Source: Escherichia phage vB_EcoM_R5505
DNA length: 64,000 nt
Direction: 5' to 3' (one strand)
Sequence record: MK373786.1
In this document: positions 19,999-30,545 of the stretch, piece after piece
Position numbering within the stretch: position 1 is the stretch's first letter
How the letters are laid out: the number at the start of each line of letters is the position of its first letter
The notes under the pieces: model-generated
What the model saw: the letters and a program-made list of their open reading frames with translations, nothing else
Database searches by the model: none
Told to the model about the DNA's origin: nothing
Made by a program: the position numbers and the translations under genes

Positions 19999-20479
19999 TA
20001 AAGAAGTTTCTATTCCTAAAATGGGTCTTAAACATTATAACATTTTAAAAGATGTTAAAGGTCCTGATGAAAATTTAAAACTTCTTATTGATTCTATTTG
20101 TCCGAATTTATCACCGGCAGAAGTTGATTTCGTTTCTATTCATTTATTGGAATTTAATGGAAAGATTAAATCTCGTAAAGAAATAGATGGTTATACTTAT
20201 GACATTAATGATGTTTATGTGTGCCAAAGATTAGAATTTCAATACCAAGGAAATACATTTTATTTTAGACCTCCTGGAAAATTTGAACAATTTTTAACGG
20301 TGAGCGATATGTTATCTAAATGCTTGCTTAAGGTCAATGATGAAGTTAAAGAAATTAATTTTCTTGAGATGCCAGCATTCGTTTTAAAATGGGCAAATGA
20401 TATTTTTACAACTTTAGCAATTCCTGGCCCTAATGGTCCAATAACTGGAATTGGCAATATTATTGGATTATTTGAATGA
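19946..20479 (+). CDS. 28: Baseplate hub distal subunit
   Basis: 177 aa as T4 gp28; 53-nt overlap with gene 27. Confidence 0.88.
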
Positions 20480-22248
20480 AAAAGCCACAAGAAATGCAAA
20501 CGATGCGTAGAAAAGTTATTTCAGATAATAAACCAACACAGGAAGCGGCTAAATCCGCTTCCAACACTTTATCTGGACTTAATGATATATCTACGAAATT
20601 GGATGATGCTCAAGCTGCTTCTGAATTAATAGCTCAAACTGTCGAAGAAAAATCGAATGAAATAGTTGGAGCAATTGGTAACGTAGAAAGCGCAGTGAGT
20701 GATACTACTGCCGGTTCTGAGTTAATTGCTGAAACTGTTGAAATTGGCAACAATATTAATAAAGAAATCGGTGAATCACTCGGGAGCAAATTAGATAAAT
20801 TAACAAGTTTACTAGAGCAAAAAATTCAGACAGCTGGAATTCAACAGACTGGAACTAGTTTAGCCACAGTTGAAAGCGCTATTCCTGTTAAAGTCGTTGA
20901 GGATGATACTGCTGAATCTGTGGGTCCTTTATTACCGGCCCCTGAAGCAGTTAATAATGATCCTGACGCTGATTTTTTCCCTACCCCTCAGCCAGTTGAA
21001 CCCAAACAAGAATCGCCAGAAGAAAAACAGAAAAAAGAAGCATTTAACTTAAAATTATCTCAAGCTTTAGATAAATTAACGAAGACTGTTGATTTTGGAT
21101 TTAAAAAATCCATTTCAATTACTGATAAAATATCAAGCATGTTATTTAAGTACACCATCAGTGCTGCTATTGAAGCTGCTAAAATGACTGCAATGATATT
21201 GGCTGTTGTTGTTGGAATAGACCTGTTGATGGTTCATTTTAAATACTGGTCAGATAAATTTTCAAAAGCCTGGGATTTATTTAATACTGACTTTACTAAA
21301 TTCTCTAGCGAAACCGGAACATGGGGTCCTTTATTACAGAGCATCTTTGATTCTATTGATAAAATTAAACAACTTTGGGAAGCGGGAGATTGGGGTGGAT
21401 TGACAGTAGCTATTGTTGAAGGGCTTGGAAAGGTTCTTTATAATTTAGGAGAACTTATTCAGCTTGGAATGGCTAAATTATCTGCGGCAATTCTTCGAGT
21501 CATTCCTGGCATGAAGGATACTGCTGATGAAGTAGAAGGAAGAGCACTAGAAAATTTCCAAAATTCTACTGGAGCATCTCTCAATAAAGAAGACCAGGAA
21601 AAAGTTGCAAATTATCAAGATAAACGAATGAATGGAGACCTTGGTCCGATAGCAAAAGGATTAGATAAAATTGCTAATTGGAAAACTCGTGCATCTAATT
21701 GGATTCGTGGGGTTGATAATAAAGAAGCACTAACTACCGACGAAGAGCGTGCGGCAGAAGAAGAAAAATTAAAGCAACTTTCACCTGAAGAAAGAAAAAA
21801 TGCTTTAATGAAGGCTAATGAAGCCCGTGCCGCAATGATTCGCTTTGAAAAATATGCTGATTCAGCTGATATGAGTAAAGACTCAACGGTTAAATCAGTT
21901 GAAGCTGCCTATGAAGACCTTAAAAAACGGATGGATGACCCGGATTTAAATAATTCACCGGCAGTTAAAAAAGAACTTGCTGCTAGATTTTCTAAAATTG
22001 ATGCTACTTATCAAGAGCTCAAGAAAAATCAGCCTAATGCCAAACCTGAAACTTCTGCTAAATCACCAGAAGCGAAACAAGTCCAGGTGATTGAAAAGAA
22101 CAAAGCACAGCAAGCTCCTGTTCAACAAGCATCTCCTTCAATCAATAATACTAATAATGTTATTAAGAAAAATACTGTCGTTCATAATATGACACCCGTA
22201 ACGAGCACGACTGCTCCTGGTGTATTTGATGCGACTGGAGTTAATTAA
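20476..22248 (+). CDS. 29: Baseplate hub subunit / tail length determinator
   Basis: 590 aa as T4 gp29; ATGA overlap with gene 28. Confidence 0.92.
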   Translation: MKKPQEMQTMRRKVISDNKPTQEAAKSASNTLSGLNDISTKLDDAQAASELIAQTVEEKSNEIVGAIGNVESAVSDTTAGSELIAETVEIGNNINKEIGESLGSKLDKLTSLLEQKIQTAGIQQTGTSLATVESAIPVKVVEDDTAESVGPLLPAPEAVNNDPDADFFPTPQPVEPKQESPEEKQKKEAFNLKLSQALDKLTKTVDFGFKKSISITDKISSMLFKYTISAAIEAAKMTAMILAVVVGIDLLMVHFKYWSDKFSKAWDLFNTDFTKFSSETGTWGPLLQSIFDSIDKIKQLWEAGDWGGLTVAIVEGLGKVLYNLGELIQLGMAKLSAAILRVIPGMKDTADEVEGRALENFQNSTGASLNKEDQEKVANYQDKRMNGDLGPIAKGLDKIANWKTRASNWIRGVDNKEALTTDEERAAEEEKLKQLSPEERKNALMKANEARAAMIRFEKYADSADMSKDSTVKSVEAAYEDLKKRMDDPDLNNSPAVKKELAARFSKIDATYQELKKNQPNAKPETSAKSPEAKQVQVIEKNKAQQAPVQQASPSINNTNNVIKKNTVVHNMTPVTSTTAPGVFDATGVN

Positions 22249-22256
22249 GGAATAAT

Positions 22257-23351
22257 ATGGCAATTGTTAAAGAAATAACTGCTGATTTAATTAAAAAGTC
22301 TGGTGAGAAAATTTCAGCCGGACAGAGTACTAAATCAGAAGTAGGAACTAAAACATACACTGCCCAGTTTCCAACTGGGCGTGCTAGTGGTAATGACACT
22401 ACAGGGGACTTCCAGGTAACAGATCTATATAAGAATGGATTATTATTTACTGCATACAATATGTCATCTAGGGATTCTGGAAGTCTTAGATCGATGAGAT
22501 CTAACTACTCTTCTTCATCTTCGAGTATTTTACGTACAGCTAGAAACACTATTAGTAGTACAGTATCAAAACTATCAAATGGATTAATATCAAATAATAA
22601 TTCAGGAACAATAAGTAAATCTCCTATCGCAAATATTCTTTTACCGAGATCTAAATCTGATGTTGATACATCATCACATAGATTTAATGATGTTCAAGAA
22701 AGCCTCATCAGTAGAGGCGGAGGTACTGCTACTGGTGTGCTAAGTAATATTGCTTCAACCGCAGTATTTGGGGCGCTGGAAAGTATAACACAAGGTATAA
22801 TGGCTGATAATAATGAACAGATTTATACGACAGCCAGAAGTATGTATGGTGGTGCTGAAAATAGAACTAAAGTGTTTACATGGGATTTGACTCCACGTTC
22901 AACAGAAGATTTAATGGCTATTATTAATATCTATCAATATTTTAACTATTTTTCTTATGGTGAAACGGGTAAATCTCAATATGCTGCTGAAATAAAGGGA
23001 TATTTAGATGATTGGTATCGTTCTACGTTAATTGAACCTTTATCTCCGGAAGACGCAGCTAAAAATAAAACACTATTTGAGAAAATGACATCGAGTTTAA
23101 CTAACGTTCTAGTAGTTTCAAACCCGACAGTTTGGATGGTGAAAAACTTTGGTGCAACATCTAAGTTTGATGGAAAAACGGAAATATTCGGTCCATGTCA
23201 AATCCAGAGTATCAGATTTGATAAAACACCTAATGGTAACTTTAACGGATTAGCTATTGCTCCAAACCTCCCTAGTACATTTACTCTTGAGATTACTATG
23301 AGAGAAATTATCACGTTAAACCGTGCTTCTTTATATGCGGGGACTTTTTAA
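22257..23351 (+). CDS. 48: Baseplate tail tube cap
   Basis: 364 aa as T4 gp48. Confidence 0.9.
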   Translation: MAIVKEITADLIKKSGEKISAGQSTKSEVGTKTYTAQFPTGRASGNDTTGDFQVTDLYKNGLLFTAYNMSSRDSGSLRSMRSNYSSSSSSILRTARNTISSTVSKLSNGLISNNNSGTISKSPIANILLPRSKSDVDTSSHRFNDVQESLISRGGGTATGVLSNIASTAVFGALESITQGIMADNNEQIYTTARSMYGGAENRTKVFTWDLTPRSTEDLMAIINIYQYFNYFSYGETGKSQYAAEIKGYLDDWYRSTLIEPLSPEDAAKNKTLFEKMTSSLTNVLVVSNPTVWMVKNFGATSKFDGKTEIFGPCQIQSIRFDKTPNGNFNGLAIAPNLPSTFTLEITMREIITLNRASLYAGTF

Positions 23352-24316
23352 TGTATTCTTTAGAGGAATTTAATAATCAAGCAATAAACGCAGATTTCCA
23401 ACGTAATAATATGTTTAGCTGCGTTTTTGCGACAACTCCATCAACTAAAAGCTCTTCGTTGATAAGTTCAATTAGCAACTTTTCTTATAATAACTTGGGC
23501 CTAAATTCAGATTGGTTAGGATTGACTCAAGGTGATATTAATCAGGGAATTACCACGCTAATTACTGCTGGCACACAAAAACTGATAAGAAAATCAGGGG
23601 TTAGTAAATATCTTATTGGTGCCATGAGTCAACGTACAGTTCAAAGTTTATTAGGCTCATTTACAGTTGGTACATATTTAATTGACTTCTTTAATATGGC
23701 ATATAACTCATCTGGATTGATGATATATTCAGTAAAAATGCCAGAGAATAGATTATCCTATGAAACTGACTGGAACTATAATTCTCCTAATATTCGTATA
23801 ACTGGGAGAGAATTAGACCCTTTGGTTATTTCATTTAGAATGGATTCAGAAGCATGTAACTATCGTGCAATGCAAGACTGGGTTAACGCTGTTCAAGACC
23901 CAGTAACTGGATTACGCGCTTTGCCACAAGATGTCGAGGCAGATATTCAGGTTAATCTTCATTCTCGCAATGGATTACCTCATACTGCGGTGATGTTCAC
24001 AGGATGCATTCCAATATCAGTGAGCGCTCCCGAGTTATCATATGATGGAGATAACCAAATAACTACATTTGATGTTACTTTTGCGTACAGAGTGATGCAG
24101 GCTGGAGCAGTTGATAGGCAAGCTGCGCTTGAATGGCTTGAATCTGCTGCTATAAATGGTATTCAAAGCGTTCTCGGAAATAGTGGAGGTGTTACTGGAC
24201 TATCTAATTCGCTTTCACGACTTAGTAGATTAGGAGGGACTGCTGGAAGCATTTCAAACATTAATACTATGACAGGAATTGTTAATTCGCAGAGTAAAAT
24301 ATTAGGAGCAATATAA
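23351..24316 (+). CDS. 54: Baseplate tail tube initiator
   Basis: 321 aa (T4 gp54 about 320); followed by hairpin terminator. Confidence 0.9.
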   Translation: MYSLEEFNNQAINADFQRNNMFSCVFATTPSTKSSSLISSISNFSYNNLGLNSDWLGLTQGDINQGITTLITAGTQKLIRKSGVSKYLIGAMSQRTVQSLLGSFTVGTYLIDFFNMAYNSSGLMIYSVKMPENRLSYETDWNYNSPNIRITGRELDPLVISFRMDSEACNYRAMQDWVNAVQDPVTGLRALPQDVEADIQVNLHSRNGLPHTAVMFTGCIPISVSAPELSYDGDNQITTFDVTFAYRVMQAGAVDRQAALEWLESAAINGIQSVLGNSGGVTGLSNSLSRLSRLGGTAGSISNINTMTGIVNSQSKILGAI

Positions 24317-24320
24317 CAAT

Positions 24321-24337
24321 GGGGACCTTTCGGTCCC
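24321..24337 (+). terminator. Hairpin terminator after gene 54
   Basis: ggggacc-tttc-ggtcccc followed by atatttttattt. Confidence 0.7.
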
Positions 24338-24344
24338 CATATTT

Positions 24345-24635
24345 TTATTTACGGAATGAAATGAAAGCAGAAACTGAAGCAACTAAACTGTCTTCAATAT
24401 AAACTTCAATTTTTACCGGAGCTTCTGACTCGAATTTACCTGTTACTACACCTTGGAAAATACTTTCAGTTTGTTCTGGCTTTGAAAAATTTTCAGAAGG
24501 AAAAATTCCGAACTTTTTATCTGTTCCAAAAATTTTGATAAATTCATCATAAACTGCTTCATTAAAAGCATTATCAGCAGGAATAACGCCTTCAACTACA
24601 AGTTCTTGACCTAAAAAGCGCAAAGAAGATTTCAT
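24345..24635 (-). CDS. Hypothetical protein (position of T4 alt.-3)
   Basis: 96-aa ORF directly downstream of an early-promoter/stem-loop element. Confidence 0.6.
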   Translation of the reverse strand: MKSSLRFLGQELVVEGVIPADNAFNEAVYDEFIKIFGTDKKFGIFPSENFSKPEQTESIFQGVVTGKFESEAPVKIEVYIEDSLVASVSAFISFRK

Positions 24636-24643
24636 TTTGTGTT

Positions 24644-24696
24644 CCTCATGTTATGTCAGTAAGACTACTATAACACAACACGAGGGACTTGTAAAC
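24644..24696 (-). promoter_or_regulatory. Early promoter embedded in a stem-loop (53-bp element, copy 1)
   Basis: Minus strand GTTTACA-(17)-TGTTATAGT; 9-bp inverted repeat cctcatgtt/aacacgagg; 51/53 identical to 39971-40023. Confidence 0.6.
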
Positions 24697-26753
24697 TACA
24701 TCTTGAACTTTTTAGACATTCCGTTGATGTTAACCAAAGAAGCCAAGATTTGAGAAACTTCGTTTTCCTCTTCTTTTGATTCTTCTACAAGGAATTGATT
24801 AAATCCAGCCATTGGACGAACTTCACCAGTTTCCATTAAATGGTCGCCATCATATACTGATTCTTCTAATTGTTCAGAAGGAGGAACGATTGTACCTTCG
24901 ATTAGATACTTGTTATAAGCAGTTTCTTTCATAAAGTACGTACTTACTTTATTAATCTTCAGTAAAATTCCACGCGGTAGAATAACTTCAGCTTCTGATG
25001 GAAATCCTGATAAATGACCTGGAACGATAACTTTGATTCGCTCAGCTCCTTTAATTACCATACCCACGCTAGTTTCAGCATCTTCAATGGCATATGTAGA
25101 ATGACTACCCATATGCATTAAATCTTCTGCATCAACGGAACCTTCTCCTTCGCCAGAAAATACTGCGCCGGAATCATCTAGAGCCATATAGTTTTTACCA
25201 TGCTCACCGAAGATATTTGGTTTAAGTGATGTCGATACGAAGTTCTTGAAATAGAACATTTTGTTTTCAATGTTATGACGCAAAGTTTTAAAGGTAACTT
25301 CTTGTCCACGGTAAAGTGTAGTTCCTGGAGGAAGAACTGATCCTTTGGCAAAGGCAGAATCCAACGTCTCGATGTGCTTAATAGCTCGTTCCATATATTC
25401 TTCACGGGTAGAATCTGGTTTACCCAAAAGGAACGAGTTCATTTCAACATATGAATCTGCACAATAATCTTCAATTACATCAGATTCAGCTTGGGTTAAT
25501 CCTTTTGGAGTTACTTCGGTGCTTGCGTATTCATATGCCTGGGCAGCAGATTCATTAATCAATTTATAAATGCCATTCATGACAAATTGAATAATAGCTG
25601 TCTTTTCATCTGGCGTAGCTTTAGAACCTTTAACTAAATCATTAATAATTTTCTTAATAACATCAAAGCTATTAGAAATATTAATGTCAGCAAGATCGCT
25701 TAAAATTTTATCAGTTTTATAATCAAAGAATTCTTTATTCTTTAAATATTCTTGAGAACCTTGATATGTTATATCGCTCTGCAACTTGATAGATGGATCA
25801 CGTAAACGTGCATGGGCTAATGCAATATGATTTCGGAAGTTTTCTAGTTCATAATCGTTAGATTTAAAACGAGAAGCACTTCTCATACCACCGATAGCTC
25901 CTTTGCTAAAGTTTGAACCAATCTGGATAACCCCGGAGTTCATCGGACCTTCTGCTTTATATACCGGAACTTTAGATTCAAACTCTTGATATTTCTTGGC
26001 AGCGAAGCTATCACCCTGAAGTGAAGCATCAACAGTAGAATATTGAGCTTGTGCTGCTAATCGACGACTAATTTTAGTTTTCTGAATAACAGCTTGATCA
26101 GTGCGCTTATCATTTTCTAAAGCAATAGAAGCAGCAACAGCGACAGCTTTAGGAACAGCATTACCTGTTTTAACGTCTACATAAACATCACCAACCTTTG
26201 ATTCAACTTTTGTGAATAACTCAGTTGAAATAGGAGGTACACCTGGAATGTCTTCTAAATTGGCATTTTTACGGTAAACCATAATATATGCATACTTTTT
26301 ATCATAGTCCCAGATTTCCTTTAAAAGAACATATCGACCTGCTCCTTTAGTACGTACTAAACGGTCAGCAATAACTTGCATTTGACGAGCTGCGCCATTT
26401 GTTTTACTCTTTAGTACACGGAATAAGCACGCGTCAATTTTGTACTGCTTCATTGTTTGAAGAGCAGTATCAAAAACAGCATTAATGACGCCAATTGGAT
26501 TTCCACCCAAGTTTCTAAGCTTAACCAGCGATAATTTCTCGTTGACACCTATCATTACGATATGCATCATTTTATCGCCTGGTTTAACGTTTTTATTTGT
26601 ATCACCACCAGAGGTGTATGTACAAAATCTAAATCCAGGAAGAACGCTTTCTTCACCGGCTTGAATAGCAAAAATTTGAGGTATTTTATGCTTAGGATTT
26701 AAGTTAACAACCGGCGCCGAAGCGCCGTCAAATAATTCTGTAATAAGTTCCAT
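24696..26753 (-). CDS. Alt-family ADP-ribosyltransferase paralog (downstream copy)
   Basis: 685 aa; N-terminus MELITELFD... and C-terminal ART motifs (YRGQ, FVSTSL, EAEVILPRG) shared with the adjacent paralog; middle region divergent. Confidence 0.85.
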   Translation of the reverse strand: MELITELFDGASAPVVNLNPKHKIPQIFAIQAGEESVLPGFRFCTYTSGGDTNKNVKPGDKMMHIVMIGVNEKLSLVKLRNLGGNPIGVINAVFDTALQTMKQYKIDACLFRVLKSKTNGAARQMQVIADRLVRTKGAGRYVLLKEIWDYDKKYAYIMVYRKNANLEDIPGVPPISTELFTKVESKVGDVYVDVKTGNAVPKAVAVAASIALENDKRTDQAVIQKTKISRRLAAQAQYSTVDASLQGDSFAAKKYQEFESKVPVYKAEGPMNSGVIQIGSNFSKGAIGGMRSASRFKSNDYELENFRNHIALAHARLRDPSIKLQSDITYQGSQEYLKNKEFFDYKTDKILSDLADINISNSFDVIKKIINDLVKGSKATPDEKTAIIQFVMNGIYKLINESAAQAYEYASTEVTPKGLTQAESDVIEDYCADSYVEMNSFLLGKPDSTREEYMERAIKHIETLDSAFAKGSVLPPGTTLYRGQEVTFKTLRHNIENKMFYFKNFVSTSLKPNIFGEHGKNYMALDDSGAVFSGEGEGSVDAEDLMHMGSHSTYAIEDAETSVGMVIKGAERIKVIVPGHLSGFPSEAEVILPRGILLKINKVSTYFMKETAYNKYLIEGTIVPPSEQLEESVYDGDHLMETGEVRPMAGFNQFLVEESKEEENEVSQILASLVNINGMSKKFKM

Positions 26754-26756
26754 GAT

Positions 26757-28847
26757 TTATCCTTGAACGAACTTGTAAGGCATGTTTGTAATATCTATGC
26801 AAGACGCAATAATTCCAAGAGATGATTCTACTTTCTGTTTAACATTTGATGAAACAAATGATGCAAAGTCAACTCTATCTTCTATATCACCTGTCATTGC
26901 AACTACTTCGCCGGTTTCCATTAAACGGTCACCGTCATAAATTACCGATTCGGTGAGTTCTTCTGTGGTCATAACTTCAGCTTGAATGAGTTTTGTATTA
27001 TTAGACGTGGTTCCGTCATTATTAGAAGCATCAGTTATTTTATTAACTTTAACCATCAATCCGCGCGGTAGAATAACTTCAGCTTCTGTTGCTATTCCTA
27101 GACTTCCTGGATATACAACATTAACTTTATGTGCGCCGTCAATTGCCCATCCTATTTGAACTTTAACGTATTCAGGATTTTCTTTATACGCTCTTATTTC
27201 GTTTGGATTAATAGTTATTCCTTCTTCATTTTTATCAACTGTCAATTCATTACGAGCTTCTGGTTCTAAAAGACCAATACCAGCATGTGTAATTCCAAAA
27301 CGCCCAAAAATGATAGGAGTTAAAGAAGTAGATACAAAATTTCTGAAATAGAACACTTTATTTTTAACTAGCGCTTCGTATATAGGAGCAGTCATACTTT
27401 GAGCACGATAAACTGTAATGCCTTCCGGTATGCGGTCACCATTTTCAAAAGCTGAATCTAAATTATTTATAGCAGATTCAATTTCTTTTTCACTCATTAC
27501 ATCATATCGTTCTGGATTGTAACGACCTAAAAGAAGATTATTGATGTCAGTATATCCTGAACCACAATACTCTCTAATGCCGCGCTTTTGTGATGGAGTA
27601 TATTTAGAACCATCACGAGCAATAGTAATATCAATCATTGGACCTGCACCAATTCCGGAAAAGCTATAAATCATTCGTTTGAGGAATTTAGTTTTTGCTG
27701 CGTTCCAGGAATTTTTAGTTATTTCTTCCCAGACTTCATCTGGTTGCCCTTTACGAGTTTTATTATGTTTATCAAGCCAATTATCTTTATATTCTTCAAA
27801 GAATTTATTAATAGCTGCTGCGTATTTCTCTAAACATTTTATTGAAGTAGTTGGTTCATTTTTTATCGCGTTAAAAATTACATCTTTAATTTTTTCGGAA
27901 ACTTCATCAACCTCACTTTTTGAAAAGAATTTATAGTCATAGTGAAGTTCATTCGCAGTTCCTTCGGCAATAATTTTTGCTGCCTTAGTTTTAGAAGCTA
28001 ATGAATTAATTCCAAGCTTCATTTCTTCTGCTTCGGGAATTAAAGGAGCGGTAGCGGGTTTATTGAAATTAGCTGCGGTAGATTCATACTTCTGAAATAA
28101 TTCACTTTCAAATCTAGAAGATTCCAATGACTGACTTTGTGCAATTGCTCTACGGGAAATTTTAACTTTAACGATTACAGCTTGATCAGAACGTTTATCA
28201 TTTTCTTGCGCAATAGATGCTGCAATTGCCTCATTTTTAGTTACTTGAGCTCCAGTATCTTTATTGATATAAACATCACCGACCTTCGATTCAACTTTAG
28301 TAAAGAGCTCGGTACTAATTTCCGGAACCCCTGGAATGTCTTCTAGTGATACATTTTTGCGATGTATAAGAATATATGCATACTTTTTATCGTAATCCCA
28401 GAGTTCCTTAAGAAGGACGTATCTGCCACCTGAACGACTACGGATAAGTCTATCAGCAATAACCTGAATTTGTCGAGCTTGACCAGCGGTTTTAGACTTA
28501 AGAATACGAAGCATACAGGCATCAATTTTATACTGACGCATTGTTTGCATTGCAACAGTAAAAACTGAATTGATATAATTAATTGGGCTTGAACCAAGAC
28601 CTTTCAATTTAGCAATTGAACCTTTAGCAGTTAATGTAAAAGGAACAATATGCATCATTTTATCGCCCATCTTTAAATCGCGATTAGTATCACCTCCAGA
28701 TGTATAGGTACATAAACGAAAGCCTGGTTGTTCAATTGCATCATCAACATGAACTGAAAAAATTTGTGGTATTTTCTTCTTTGGGTTTAAGTTTGTAATC
28801 GGAAGAGTAGTATCTTCGTCAAATAATTCTGTAATGAGTTCCATCAT
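26757..28847 (-). CDS. alt: Alt-family ADP-ribosyltransferase (upstream copy, probably the alt orthologue)
   Basis: 696 aa (695 from the second Met); R-S-ExE ART motifs YRAQ, FVSTSL, EAEVILPRG; minus-strand TATAAATA at 28868-28875 upstream; which paralog is canonical alt is not certain. Confidence 0.85.
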   Translation of the reverse strand: MMELITELFDEDTTLPITNLNPKKKIPQIFSVHVDDAIEQPGFRLCTYTSGGDTNRDLKMGDKMMHIVPFTLTAKGSIAKLKGLGSSPINYINSVFTVAMQTMRQYKIDACMLRILKSKTAGQARQIQVIADRLIRSRSGGRYVLLKELWDYDKKYAYILIHRKNVSLEDIPGVPEISTELFTKVESKVGDVYINKDTGAQVTKNEAIAASIAQENDKRSDQAVIVKVKISRRAIAQSQSLESSRFESELFQKYESTAANFNKPATAPLIPEAEEMKLGINSLASKTKAAKIIAEGTANELHYDYKFFSKSEVDEVSEKIKDVIFNAIKNEPTTSIKCLEKYAAAINKFFEEYKDNWLDKHNKTRKGQPDEVWEEITKNSWNAAKTKFLKRMIYSFSGIGAGPMIDITIARDGSKYTPSQKRGIREYCGSGYTDINNLLLGRYNPERYDVMSEKEIESAINNLDSAFENGDRIPEGITVYRAQSMTAPIYEALVKNKVFYFRNFVSTSLTPIIFGRFGITHAGIGLLEPEARNELTVDKNEEGITINPNEIRAYKENPEYVKVQIGWAIDGAHKVNVVYPGSLGIATEAEVILPRGLMVKVNKITDASNNDGTTSNNTKLIQAEVMTTEELTESVIYDGDRLMETGEVVAMTGDIEDRVDFASFVSSNVKQKVESSLGIIASCIDITNMPYKFVQG

Positions 28848-28867
28848 ATCCTCTCTAGTGTTTATTC

Positions 28868-28875
28868 TATTTATA
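28868..28875 (-). promoter_or_regulatory. Late promoter TATAAATA (alt paralogs)
   Basis: Plus TATTTATA 28868-28875, followed on the minus strand by GAGAGG RBS and the alt ATG. Confidence 0.6.
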
Positions 28876-28880
28876 AAATT

Positions 28881-28898
28881 AAAGGCCCGAAGGCCTTT
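28881..28898 (-). terminator. Hairpin between the ligase-coupled ORF and alt
   Basis: aaaggcc-cgaa-ggccttt, symmetric A/T flanks. Confidence 0.5.
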
Positions 28899-29085
28899 AA
28901 TAATCTATTGGTAAGAGAGTACGATATATTTCAAACTTTGGACCTTTTTCATAAGCATCAAAAGTTTCTGTGAATTTATTATAAGCATATGCATCTATAA
29001 ATTCAATCATGATTTGTGATACAGAAGTAGAAACATCTCCACCTTCTTTTTGAGCCACGACAATTGTTTCTAAGTAAGCTTTCAT
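28897..29085 (-). CDS. Hypothetical small protein translationally coupled to DNA ligase
   Basis: 62-aa ORF whose ATG overlaps the ligase TGA (ATGA); followed by a hairpin terminator. Confidence 0.5.
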   Translation of the reverse strand: MKAYLETIVVAQKEGGDVSTSVSQIMIEFIDAYAYNKFTETFDAYEKGPKFEIYRTLLPIDY

Positions 29086-30545
29086 AAACCAGTTACCTCA
29101 TGAAAATCACCAAATACATCCTCGAATGTATTAGCTTTAGTTTTATCTTCACGCAAACGAATCGCAATTGGAAGAAATAATTTAACGTAATCAGTGCGGC
29201 CATCGGATTTTAACCAACCGTTGCATTCGCACTCTAGAATTTTTCCAATATAATAATTTTGGTTTTCCATAATGCGAGTACGGTCAAGTTCATGTGATTT
29301 TACGCCGGCTTTATCTTTTAAGCCTGAACCGGCATTTACCTTAATTTTTCCACACTCTGACTCAAGAATAAATCCACCTGCTTTAGTAGGGTCTTTACGG
29401 TGAGGATAAATTCCTACAATTTTTAAATCAACATCAATTACTTCTTTAAATTTATAGAGATTTTTTGAACGAGCATTTTCCCATAATCCATCGATATTTT
29501 TGAGAATAATACCTTCAAGACCTTGGTCAATATACTTTTTATAAATTACCTTAGCTTCATCTAGGTTATTTACTACTTGGTTTTCAATTAAAATTACTTT
29601 ATCATATCCTGATGTCATTTGTTCTAATTTAGAAAAACGTACATCATATTTTAAACGAAATGCTGGAAGACCGTATATTTCTACCAACGGAACATAATCC
29701 CAGACCTGAAACTTCATGCATTGAGCTTCTTTTTCTGAAATAGTTCCCTTTAAAGATTTATTAGCGATTCCATTAGAAGTAGTACGTGATTCAGCTACTT
29801 CAGCAAACTCTTTAGCTTTACTAATTTCAGGATAAGCATCAAAAAGAAAATCTAGGCCTTCTGGCTCCTTTTTAACTTGCTCATGGTATACCAATTCGCC
29901 ATCAATTAACACACCTTCTGGATGAATCTGGCGGGCTTCAGCGGTCATTTTGATTAACTCTTCCTTAAGAAGATCTAATCCTAGATATTCATTACCAGCT
30001 CGTGATAAAAGACGGACATCATCTAATTCATCACCTCTAACTTCAGCAAAACACCGAGCTCCATCTGCTTTTAATTGTGCAAAGGCTGGAAATTTGATAT
30101 TCTTACTAATGCCTTTTTCATCATAAGAACTTGCGAGCATTTGAGGTTGTTCAGGAATTAAACCTGGCCAAACTTTGTTTGCAATAGATACTGAAGCACC
30201 ACATTCAAGGTCTCGCATCATCACTCGACGCAAAACTTCAACATCATCTTTTTTACCATCGGTGATATATCCAGATAATTCCTCAATTGCCGCATTTCCG
30301 GTCAATTTCCGAGTAGCTAACGTGAATTCAATGAAGTCAAGCATATCGGTAAGAGTCAACATTCCAAAACTCTGGGTAGCAATACCAGATTTAGGCCATT
30401 TCTTGATATAATACTGCAACCCACGAGAATAAGTCAGACGATATACTCGTTTAAGCAATTCATTATCTTTATTCTTTTCAAGAATTGCTTGCTTCTGCTT
30501 AGTTGAACCAATAGATGCTATTTCGTTCAGAATTTTAAGAATCAT
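29082..30545 (-). CDS. 30: ATP-dependent DNA ligase
   Basis: 487 aa as T4 DNA ligase; adenylation motif KADGAR. Confidence 0.95.
   Translation of the reverse strand: MILKILNEIASIGSTKQKQAILEKNKDNELLKRVYRLTYSRGLQYYIKKWPKSGIATQSFGMLTLTDMLDFIEFTLATRKLTGNAAIEELSGYITDGKKDDVEVLRRVMMRDLECGASVSIANKVWPGLIPEQPQMLASSYDEKGISKNIKFPAFAQLKADGARCFAEVRGDELDDVRLLSRAGNEYLGLDLLKEELIKMTAEARQIHPEGVLIDGELVYHEQVKKEPEGLDFLFDAYPEISKAKEFAEVAESRTTSNGIANKSLKGTISEKEAQCMKFQVWDYVPLVEIYGLPAFRLKYDVRFSKLEQMTSGYDKVILIENQVVNNLDEAKVIYKKYIDQGLEGIILKNIDGLWENARSKNLYKFKEVIDVDLKIVGIYPHRKDPTKAGGFILESECGKIKVNAGSGLKDKAGVKSHELDRTRIMENQNYYIGKILECECNGWLKSDGRTDYVKLFLPIAIRLREDKTKANTFEDVFGDFHEVTGL

Follow-up and report, generated by a model that had tools for sequence, protein, structure and literature searches.

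Within the 64,000-nucleotide stretch of Escherichia phage vB_EcoM_R5505 analyzed here (record MK373786.1, hereafter the window), two paralogous genes of the Alt family of ADP-ribosyltransferases (ARTs), alt and alt.-2, lie in tandem on the minus strand. We hold with moderate confidence, from comparisons of sequences and predicted structures, that the product of alt.-2 is a second head-packaged, injected and arginine-specific ADP-ribosyltransferase, which would have a different set of targets and, like T4 Alt, would be processed by the prohead protease gp21, its gene being co-transcribed with alt. The paralogy of the two proteins, their intact catalytic and cleavage motifs, the ART fold, purifying selection, synteny and the loss of the gene from T4 are established; co-transcription, packaging, processing, injection, enzymatic activity and a difference in targets are what we infer. 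The first-pass annotation of this DNA had described two adjacent open reading frames (ORFs) of 696 and 685 amino acids, three nucleotides apart, behind a minus-strand late promoter. The coordinates, the lengths and the spacer (ATC) are all right, and the promoter sequence TATAAATA is found exactly at the predicted site (Table 1).

Alt and Alt.-2 are 41% identical along their full length (BLASTP, E 8e-159), a degree of paralogy far beyond chance, and both match the Pfam family PF03496 (ADPrib_exo_Tox), Alt with an E value of 1.9e-37 (129 bits) and Alt.-2 with one of 6.1e-20 (71.8 bits), for a gathering cut-off of 23.4 bits. The earlier assignment of the pair to the Alt family is thus upheld. 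Conservation is distributed unevenly, with 67% identity in the N-terminal residues 1-239, 20% in the middle segment (240-414), 36% in the ART region and 38% in the C-terminal region (636-696). Inside the ART region, residues 415-520 are 42% identical and residues 521-580, which form the stretch from the STS to the ExE motif, 20%. The first-pass annotation had rightly pointed to diverging middle segments, but its description of an N-terminus of about 220 residues as nearly identical overstated what is nevertheless the best-conserved part of the two proteins. Absent from that annotation was the conserved C-terminal tail, YDGDxLMETGE ... KF.

Both copies have a C-terminal ART domain with the full R-S-ExE signature, as had been proposed, and the loss of catalytic residues from one of them, which would have told against the proposal, is not seen. 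The residues are R481, S506-T-S508 and E588-A-E590 in Alt, numbered from its first ATG, and R482, S507-T-S509 and E587-A-E589 in Alt.-2. Both signatures align with R478, STS503-505 and E574-M-E576 of T4 Alt, and R, STS and ExE are kept in 56-57 of the 59 diverse family representatives that were compared. The E577A variant of T4 Alt is reported to be catalytically dead (PMC11404850); E577, in first-ATG numbering, is the second glutamate of E-M-E, and its counterpart in the paralog is E589. The residues directly before and at ExE read GFPSEAE in Alt.-2 and GIATEAE in Alt. All three thirds of Alt.-2 match, in order, the Alt-like ART family phrog_802 (E 6.6e-118, 9.5e-22 and 7.3e-105). No NCBIfam model matches either protein, and a sequence search of the PDB returned no match for Alt.-2 and weak toxin matches only for Alt. 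The precomputed annotations of all full-length Alt and Alt.-2 homologs (P0001-P0120) also list the Pfam family PF26846.1.

Alt is laid out as an N-domain (residues 1-239), a helical middle (240-414), an ART domain (about 415-632) and a C-terminal propeptide (633-695). In the AlphaFold2 model of Alt.-2, which has a mean predicted local distance difference test score (pLDDT) of 70 and values mostly of 70-90 in the ART core, an α/β N-domain (about 11-235) is followed by an all-helical middle (about 240-415), an ART domain (about 420-625), a disordered tail (629-674) and then the short conserved terminal motif. Searched against the PDB with Foldseek, this model finds the Vis toxin (E 2.4e-7), C3, CDTa, iota Ia and VIP2 (E about 1e-5) and also Certhrax; E values across these matches run from 2e-7 to 1e-4, each at a probability of 1.00. 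As judged from its model, Alt.-2 has an ART fold. The C3, Vis, VIP2 and iota/CDTa toxins of the R-S-E type (PF03496) share with the phage enzymes that fold as well as R, S-T-S and E-x-E, but they are only 13-20% identical and have other delivery domains, whereas the phage enzymes have an N-domain of about 240 residues, the helical middle and two protease-removed propeptides. The isoelectric point (pI) of the N-domain is basic (9.5-9.7, about 9.7 in Alt.-2), that of the ART domain is acidic (5.0), and the C-terminal tail is acidic as well.

The first-pass annotation had suggested a comparison with T4 alt and its neighbors, and this comparison reveals that T4 has no second paralog but only a degraded remnant of one. 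The T4 record contains two small ORFs between alt and alt.-3, namely alt.-1 (61 amino acids, NP_049810) and alt.-2 (67 amino acids, NP_049809), with a note that derives them from an ancient duplication of the beginning of alt. Taken together they span about the first 120 residues of the window Alt.-2 in the alignment, and in their DNA they share 93.5% identity with the 5' end of the window alt.-2 but only 68% with either alt gene. Analysis with blastn and alignment of the junction point to two lesions. A one-nucleotide deletion in a run of A residues split the frame into alt.-1 and alt.-2, and a 1,699-nucleotide deletion between microhomologies of nine nucleotides took out the rest of the N-domain, the middle and the entire ART domain; beyond it the frame overruns its original stop. 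Since this frameshift and this deletion explain alt.-1 and alt.-2, T4 once had a full-length paralog, of which these two ORFs are the remnant. A second loss is seen in Escherichia phage sutha, which retains a 117-nucleotide 3' remnant of alt.-2 (L008, 3974-4090) after a deletion of about 1.94 kilobases; to judge by its endpoints, which are unlike those in T4, this loss is independent of the first.

Other phages have kept the gene. Among the 541 phage records that match the locus, 401 contain the segment that T4 lacks, with a nucleotide identity of 94.5-99.6%. In the six genomes compared pairwise for selection analysis, those of the window, RB32, 11B_SA_NWU, RB68, Shfl2 and T2, alt.-2 is an unbroken ORF of 2,058 nucleotides with no insertions or deletions. 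The ratio of non-synonymous to synonymous substitution rates (dN/dS) is 0.02-0.05 at a synonymous divergence (dS) of 0.11-0.27, with 4-17 non-synonymous differences against 46-102 synonymous ones. The gene is under strong purifying selection and, given these ratios and its intact ORF, is not a decaying duplicate.

Transcription of the pair probably starts after a terminator. A hairpin with a GGCC-UUCG-GGCC core, followed by a T-run, overlaps the stop codon of alt.1 and is identical in T4, RB32 and SH7; it is a probable terminator upstream of alt by its sequence, although a simple terminator scan missed it. In five of six T4-like genomes, a terminator was predicted upstream of alt (Nolan et al., 2006, PMC1524935). 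The promoter sequence TATAAATA comes after this hairpin. It is conserved in T4, RB32 and SH7, and the 70-nucleotide stretch from hairpin to promoter is essentially identical in RB32 and SH7, T4 differing only by a five-nucleotide duplication (AATAG) just past TATAAATA. That this copy acts as a late promoter is suggested by what is known of T4, in which Alt belongs to the prohead core; the window as a whole has 19 copies of TATAAATA, against 9.4 expected. Between this promoter and position 24340, the terminator scan found no terminator-like site on the minus strand, and none between alt and alt.-2. At the boundary of gene 54 and alt.-3, in contrast, it found a bidirectional hairpin, which probably ends an alt/alt.-2/alt.-3 late transcript. 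Since no minus-strand terminator separates the promoter from that hairpin, co-transcription of alt, alt.-2 and probably alt.-3 from 28868-28875 would be the simplest reading.

A second copy of TATAAATA within alt (27464-27471, minus strand), about 700 nucleotides upstream of alt.-2, was considered as a promoter of alt.-2 and rejected. It is present in RB32 but absent at that position from T4 and SH7, it falls in A-I-N-N codons, and about half of the occurrences are expected by chance in so AT-rich a window, which is why it is treated as a chance occurrence.

The two genes share one reading frame, with a TAA-ATC-ATG junction (26751-26759, minus strand), and each has a ribosome-binding site of its own. 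That of alt.-2 is a Shine-Dalgarno sequence, AAGGA, located six nucleotides 5' of the ATG and within the final codons of alt. For alt, the true start is likely the second ATG, at 28844, which yields a protein of 695 amino acids, because a GAGG Shine-Dalgarno sequence lies five nucleotides from the second ATG and only two from the first, and because T4 alt, which also has an ATGATGG double start, is annotated from the second. The surroundings of the alt.-2 start (AGGATAAATCATGGAACT) resemble those of the alt start (AGGATATGATGGAACT), and this likeness suggests that the duplication unit took in the ribosome-binding site.

The fate of T4 Alt provides the model for what would follow. T4 Alt (gpAlt, NP_049811) is an NAD:arginine mono-ADP-ribosyltransferase that is packaged in the head and injected; it is a prohead core protein of about 40 copies, dispensable for assembly and ejected into the host (PMC9958956; PMC9026906). 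The published evidence for a place in the virion head and for injection relates to this canonical Alt. Mass spectrometry has shown that gp21 cuts it at ITE-6, removing six residues, and at LTE-619, removing 63, which leaves a mature protein of 68.2 kDa (PMC5694885). The window alt is its ortholog, with the same position, promoter, hairpin, R/STS/ExE residues and gp21 motifs. Alt.-2 shares these motifs and the division into four parts, at an identity to T4 Alt of 41-42% over the whole protein and of 20% for the middle segment. In both window proteins the two protease motifs stand at positions aligned with the T4 Alt sites, cleavage itself being predicted, and mature masses of 70.2 kDa for Alt and 69.2 kDa for Alt.-2 would result. 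Of the 59 representatives, 54 have an aligned [LIVMA]-x-E at the N-terminal cleavage site and 53 have one at the C-terminal cleavage site, while the glutamate itself is found in 56. These motifs are the strongest available argument that Alt.-2 would share the prohead route of T4 Alt. The proposal that the shared N-terminus directs both proteins into the capsid may need widening: as T4 Alt has propeptides at both ends, the N-terminus alone need not be the determinant, and capsid-related determinants may reside in the two terminal propeptides, in the basic N-domain, or in both.

The mechanism that we propose would thus begin with late transcription from 28868-28875 across both genes and their separate translation from the two ribosome-binding sites. 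Alt and Alt.-2 would then be built into the prohead core, where gp21 would trim both ends of each, after ITE-6 and after LTE-632 (Alt) or LEE-631 (Alt.-2), to yield mature proteins of about 69-70 kDa. Both would enter the host by injection together with the DNA, and there they would carry out mono-ADP-ribosylation of host proteins at arginine residues. The E-x-E form of the motif suggests this specificity; C3-type enzymes of the same ART clade, with a Q-x-E motif, target asparagine. Alt and Alt.-2 probably modify different host proteins, since their sequences diverge most in the helical middle and in the STS-to-ExE stretch, with the neighborhood of the ARTT loop.

Several observations weigh against such a role for Alt.-2. 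Its Pfam score is lower than that of Alt, the AlphaFold2 model gives the STS-to-ExE region low confidence, and at least two losses of the gene, in T4 and in sutha, have left the phages viable. Because of these two losses, alt.-2 must be dispensable under some conditions. In addition, in the virion proteome of SH7, a phage in which both genes are present, the canonical upstream Alt alone was detected, by two peptides (PMC5238451).

This last result is in keeping with the main rival explanation, that Alt.-2 is an active late ADP-ribosyltransferase that stays unpackaged and acts late in the cytoplasm, on host or phage proteins. Expression from a late promoter is not in itself proof of packaging, and the SH7 data cannot serve as such proof for Alt.-2 either: this use of them was considered and rejected, since the detected ORF, 119150-121210, is the upstream alt. 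However, with two Alt peptides and 13 structural proteins in total, that dataset lacks the depth to be taken as negative evidence (PMC5238451). Moreover, a purely cytoplasmic enzyme would have no obvious reason to preserve the two gp21 motifs, the N-domain or the acidic propeptide at the C-terminus, all of which Alt.-2 retains. We regard an unpackaged enzyme as unlikely.

Still less probable is that Alt.-2 serves mainly as a structural or scaffolding part of the prohead core, or as a DNA-associated internal protein, its ART activity being minor or redundant with that of Alt. The N-domain is strongly basic, like internal proteins, and for Alt a role in the core has been described beside the enzymatic one (PMC11404850). 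Yet all the catalytic residues of Alt.-2 are conserved, purifying selection extends over the whole gene, and T4 makes normal heads without the protein. As for the possibility that alt.-2 is a redundant copy turning into a pseudogene, a state already reached in T4, the independent deletions of most of alt.-2 in T4 and sutha would fit, but the selection analysis contradicts this explanation, as do the intact ORF in six genomes and the many records that carry the segment, and we consider it highly improbable. A second virion-delivered enzyme is the reading that we prefer.

The alt gene of the window is not the T4 allele but that of T2 type, which is common to RB32, T2, Shfl2, RB68 and sutha, and its middle and ART parts diverge from those of T4 Alt. 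Against T4 Alt alone, identity is 98.7% in the N-domain, 31-33% in the middle, 64-67% in the ART domain and 93% in the C-terminal propeptide, with dS above 1 in the middle and ART parts. Compared by segment with the alt genes of T4 and SH7, it is 99-100% identical in the N-domain (dS about 0.1) and 94-98% in the C-terminal propeptide (dS 0.13-0.19), versus 33-35% in the middle (dS 0.9-1.1) and 67% in the ART part (dS about 1.3). This contrast between a dS above 0.9 in the middle and ART parts and one of about 0.1 in the flanks (window 26949-28844 against T4 and SH7) indicates, at the level of sequence, that cassettes have been exchanged between alt alleles by recombination. In the population, at least three cassettes of middle plus ART thus appear to be set between conserved ends, those of T4-type alt, T2-type alt and alt.-2. 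Their combinations differ, SH7 having T4-type alt with alt.-2, the window T2-type alt with alt.-2, and T4 its own type of alt with the alt.-2 remnant. The pattern fits a phage-internal role for the conserved ends and variable parts that face the host, and the locus offers a clean example of modular evolution, in which the packaging-related ends are near-identical between alleles and the middle and catalytic parts deeply divergent.

At the sequence level, the N-domain appears rare and specific to Alt. Among 1.84 billion representatives it turned up in 69 clusters, in every case at the very start of proteins about 600-710 residues long, and PF03496 is carried by 57 of the 59 long members. The possibility that it is a generic sequence module found on many effectors was therefore rejected, as it is nearly exclusive to ART-bearing proteins. 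One member without a Pfam match, P0183, nonetheless has a degenerate ART (…TSCSL…NSEIVLPRG). The sole N-domain protein whose C-terminal 370 residues show neither a recognizable ART domain nor its motifs is the metagenomic P0184 (541 amino acids), which has the Alt N-domain at 27% identity and matches phrog_802 positions 4-168. With the model of the N-domain alone, which is a confident one (Alt.-2 1-240; window 26034-26753, minus strand), a Foldseek search of BFVD found Alt homologs and also big uncharacterized proteins of unrelated phages (E 1e-7 to 5e-4, 12-15% identity), for instance of Erwinia phiEa2809, Dickeya RC-2014, Vibrio VP-1 and Shigella MK-13, some of which are named for Zeta-toxin, ParB/sulfiredoxin (Srx) or cytidine-deaminase domains. 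As a fold, the N-domain may thus be a shared module joined to different effectors.

The window is a Tequatrovirus segment of T2/RB32-like type, in which the two alt genes belong to a minus-strand block between the baseplate and tail-tube genes and DNA ligase. The pair lies between gene 54 and gene 30, in synteny with T4, RB32, T2 and others, and T2, RB32, RB27, RB33 and many more have the same six genes. A megablast search with window positions 24300-29100 matched the 541 phage records mentioned above, nearly all of them Tequatrovirus; the top matches reach 98% identity, and in 368 records the match extends over at least 80% of the query. The last gene of the block, alt.-3, is a neighbor of the Alt paralogs but not an ART. 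It appears here at wild-type length, with an early-type promoter of its own (GTTTACA-17-TATAGT, 24695-24667, minus strand) directly after the alt.-2 stop. In T4, mutants with a C-terminal extension of alt.-3 escape the mRNA-ADP-ribosylating defence system CmdTAC (PMC11618068).

Table 1. Features of the alt/alt.-2 locus and its surroundings, in window coordinates.
Feature	Position	Strand	Remarks
gp29	20476-22248	+	
gp48	between gp29 and gp54		
gp54 (gene 54)	23351-24316	+	
Probable bidirectional terminator hairpin	24319-24340	both	gene 54 (+) / alt.-3 (-) boundary; 9-bp stem with 6 GC pairs (scan)
alt.-3	24345-24635	-	96 amino acids; last gene of minus-strand block; Pfam PF17602 (DUF5498), E 5.4e-64; PHROG 1739
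alt.-2	24696-26753	-	685 amino acids; full-length second Alt paralog
Segment absent from T4	24707-26414	-	bounded by CTAAAGAGT (26406-26414) and CTAAAAAGT (24707-24715)
Alt.-2 protease motifs (predicted sites)	ITE-6 (E6 26736-26738); LEE-631 (E631 24861-24863)	-	
Alt.-2 catalytic codons	R482 25308-25310; S507/S509 25227-25235; E587/E589 24987-24995	-	
alt	26757-28847	-	T2-type allele; 696 amino acids as listed
Alt protease motifs (predicted sites)	ITE-6 28827-28835; LTE-632 26949-26957	-	
Alt catalytic codons	R480 27405-27407; S505/S507 27324-27332; E587/E589 27078-27086	-	second-ATG numbering
Putative T4-type late promoter TATAAATA	28868-28875	-	5' of alt; exact match
Probable terminator hairpin upstream of alt	28881-28898	-	AAAGGCC-UUCG-GGCCUUU, then T-run
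alt.1	28897-29085	-	PF24647
DNA ligase gp30	29082-30545	-	

The tandem pair is already known as an annotated feature in hundreds of phages, as the RefSeq and GenBank annotations, the note in the T4 record and the literature attest. RefSeq labels both large ORFs "Alt-like RNA polymerase ADP-ribosyltransferase (x2)", they are named alt and alt.-2 in RB32, and the latter name or the same label recurs in RB68, T2 and other records. The gene of the window is one more member of this series, of the same length and at the same position as in RB32, RB68, T2, Shfl2 and other Tequatroviruses (e.g., YP_803136), and is full-length where T4 alt.-1 and alt.-2 are fragments. A comparison of the alt genes of T2, T4 and T6 was reportedly made by Koch and Rüger in 1994. 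T4 also has ModA and ModB, small ADP-ribosyltransferases that are produced early, stay out of the virion and have neither N-domain nor propeptides. Both belong to the same Alt/VIP2 clade of R-S-E enzymes (Iyer et al., 2017, PMC5512222). The duplication was noted by Nolan et al. (2006), who listed alt.-1 and alt.-2 among the paralogous duplications of alt, together with ORFs like them in RB49 and 44RR, and remarked on a full-length duplicate in 44RR (PMC1524935). Our literature search, whose coverage leaves out most subscription journals, found no functional study of full-length Alt.-2 and no characterized second Alt. To this the present work adds the exact account of the T4 lesions, the conservation of the cleavage motifs, the analysis of selection and the organization into cassettes.

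A broader reading, which we offer tentatively and hold to be somewhat less than probable, is that most T-even phages carry a second virion-delivered arginine ADP-ribosyltransferase, with targets distinct from those of Alt and possibly including a defence or stress protein. The N-domain and the two protease-removed propeptides would then form a conserved delivery chassis, and the middle and ART parts would be swapped cassettes. If this is true, the second enzyme would have been overlooked for decades because the reference phage, T4, deleted alt.-2. Host takeover by T4 opens with ADP-ribosylation by injected Alt, a step that has been studied only in that phage, which lost the second enzyme, whereas most natural T-even phages, going by the proportion of matching records that carry the segment, would deliver two such enzymes. 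If Alt.-2 has targets of its own, the T4-based picture of early takeover would not be complete for T2, T6 and the RB phages, nor for many therapeutic isolates.

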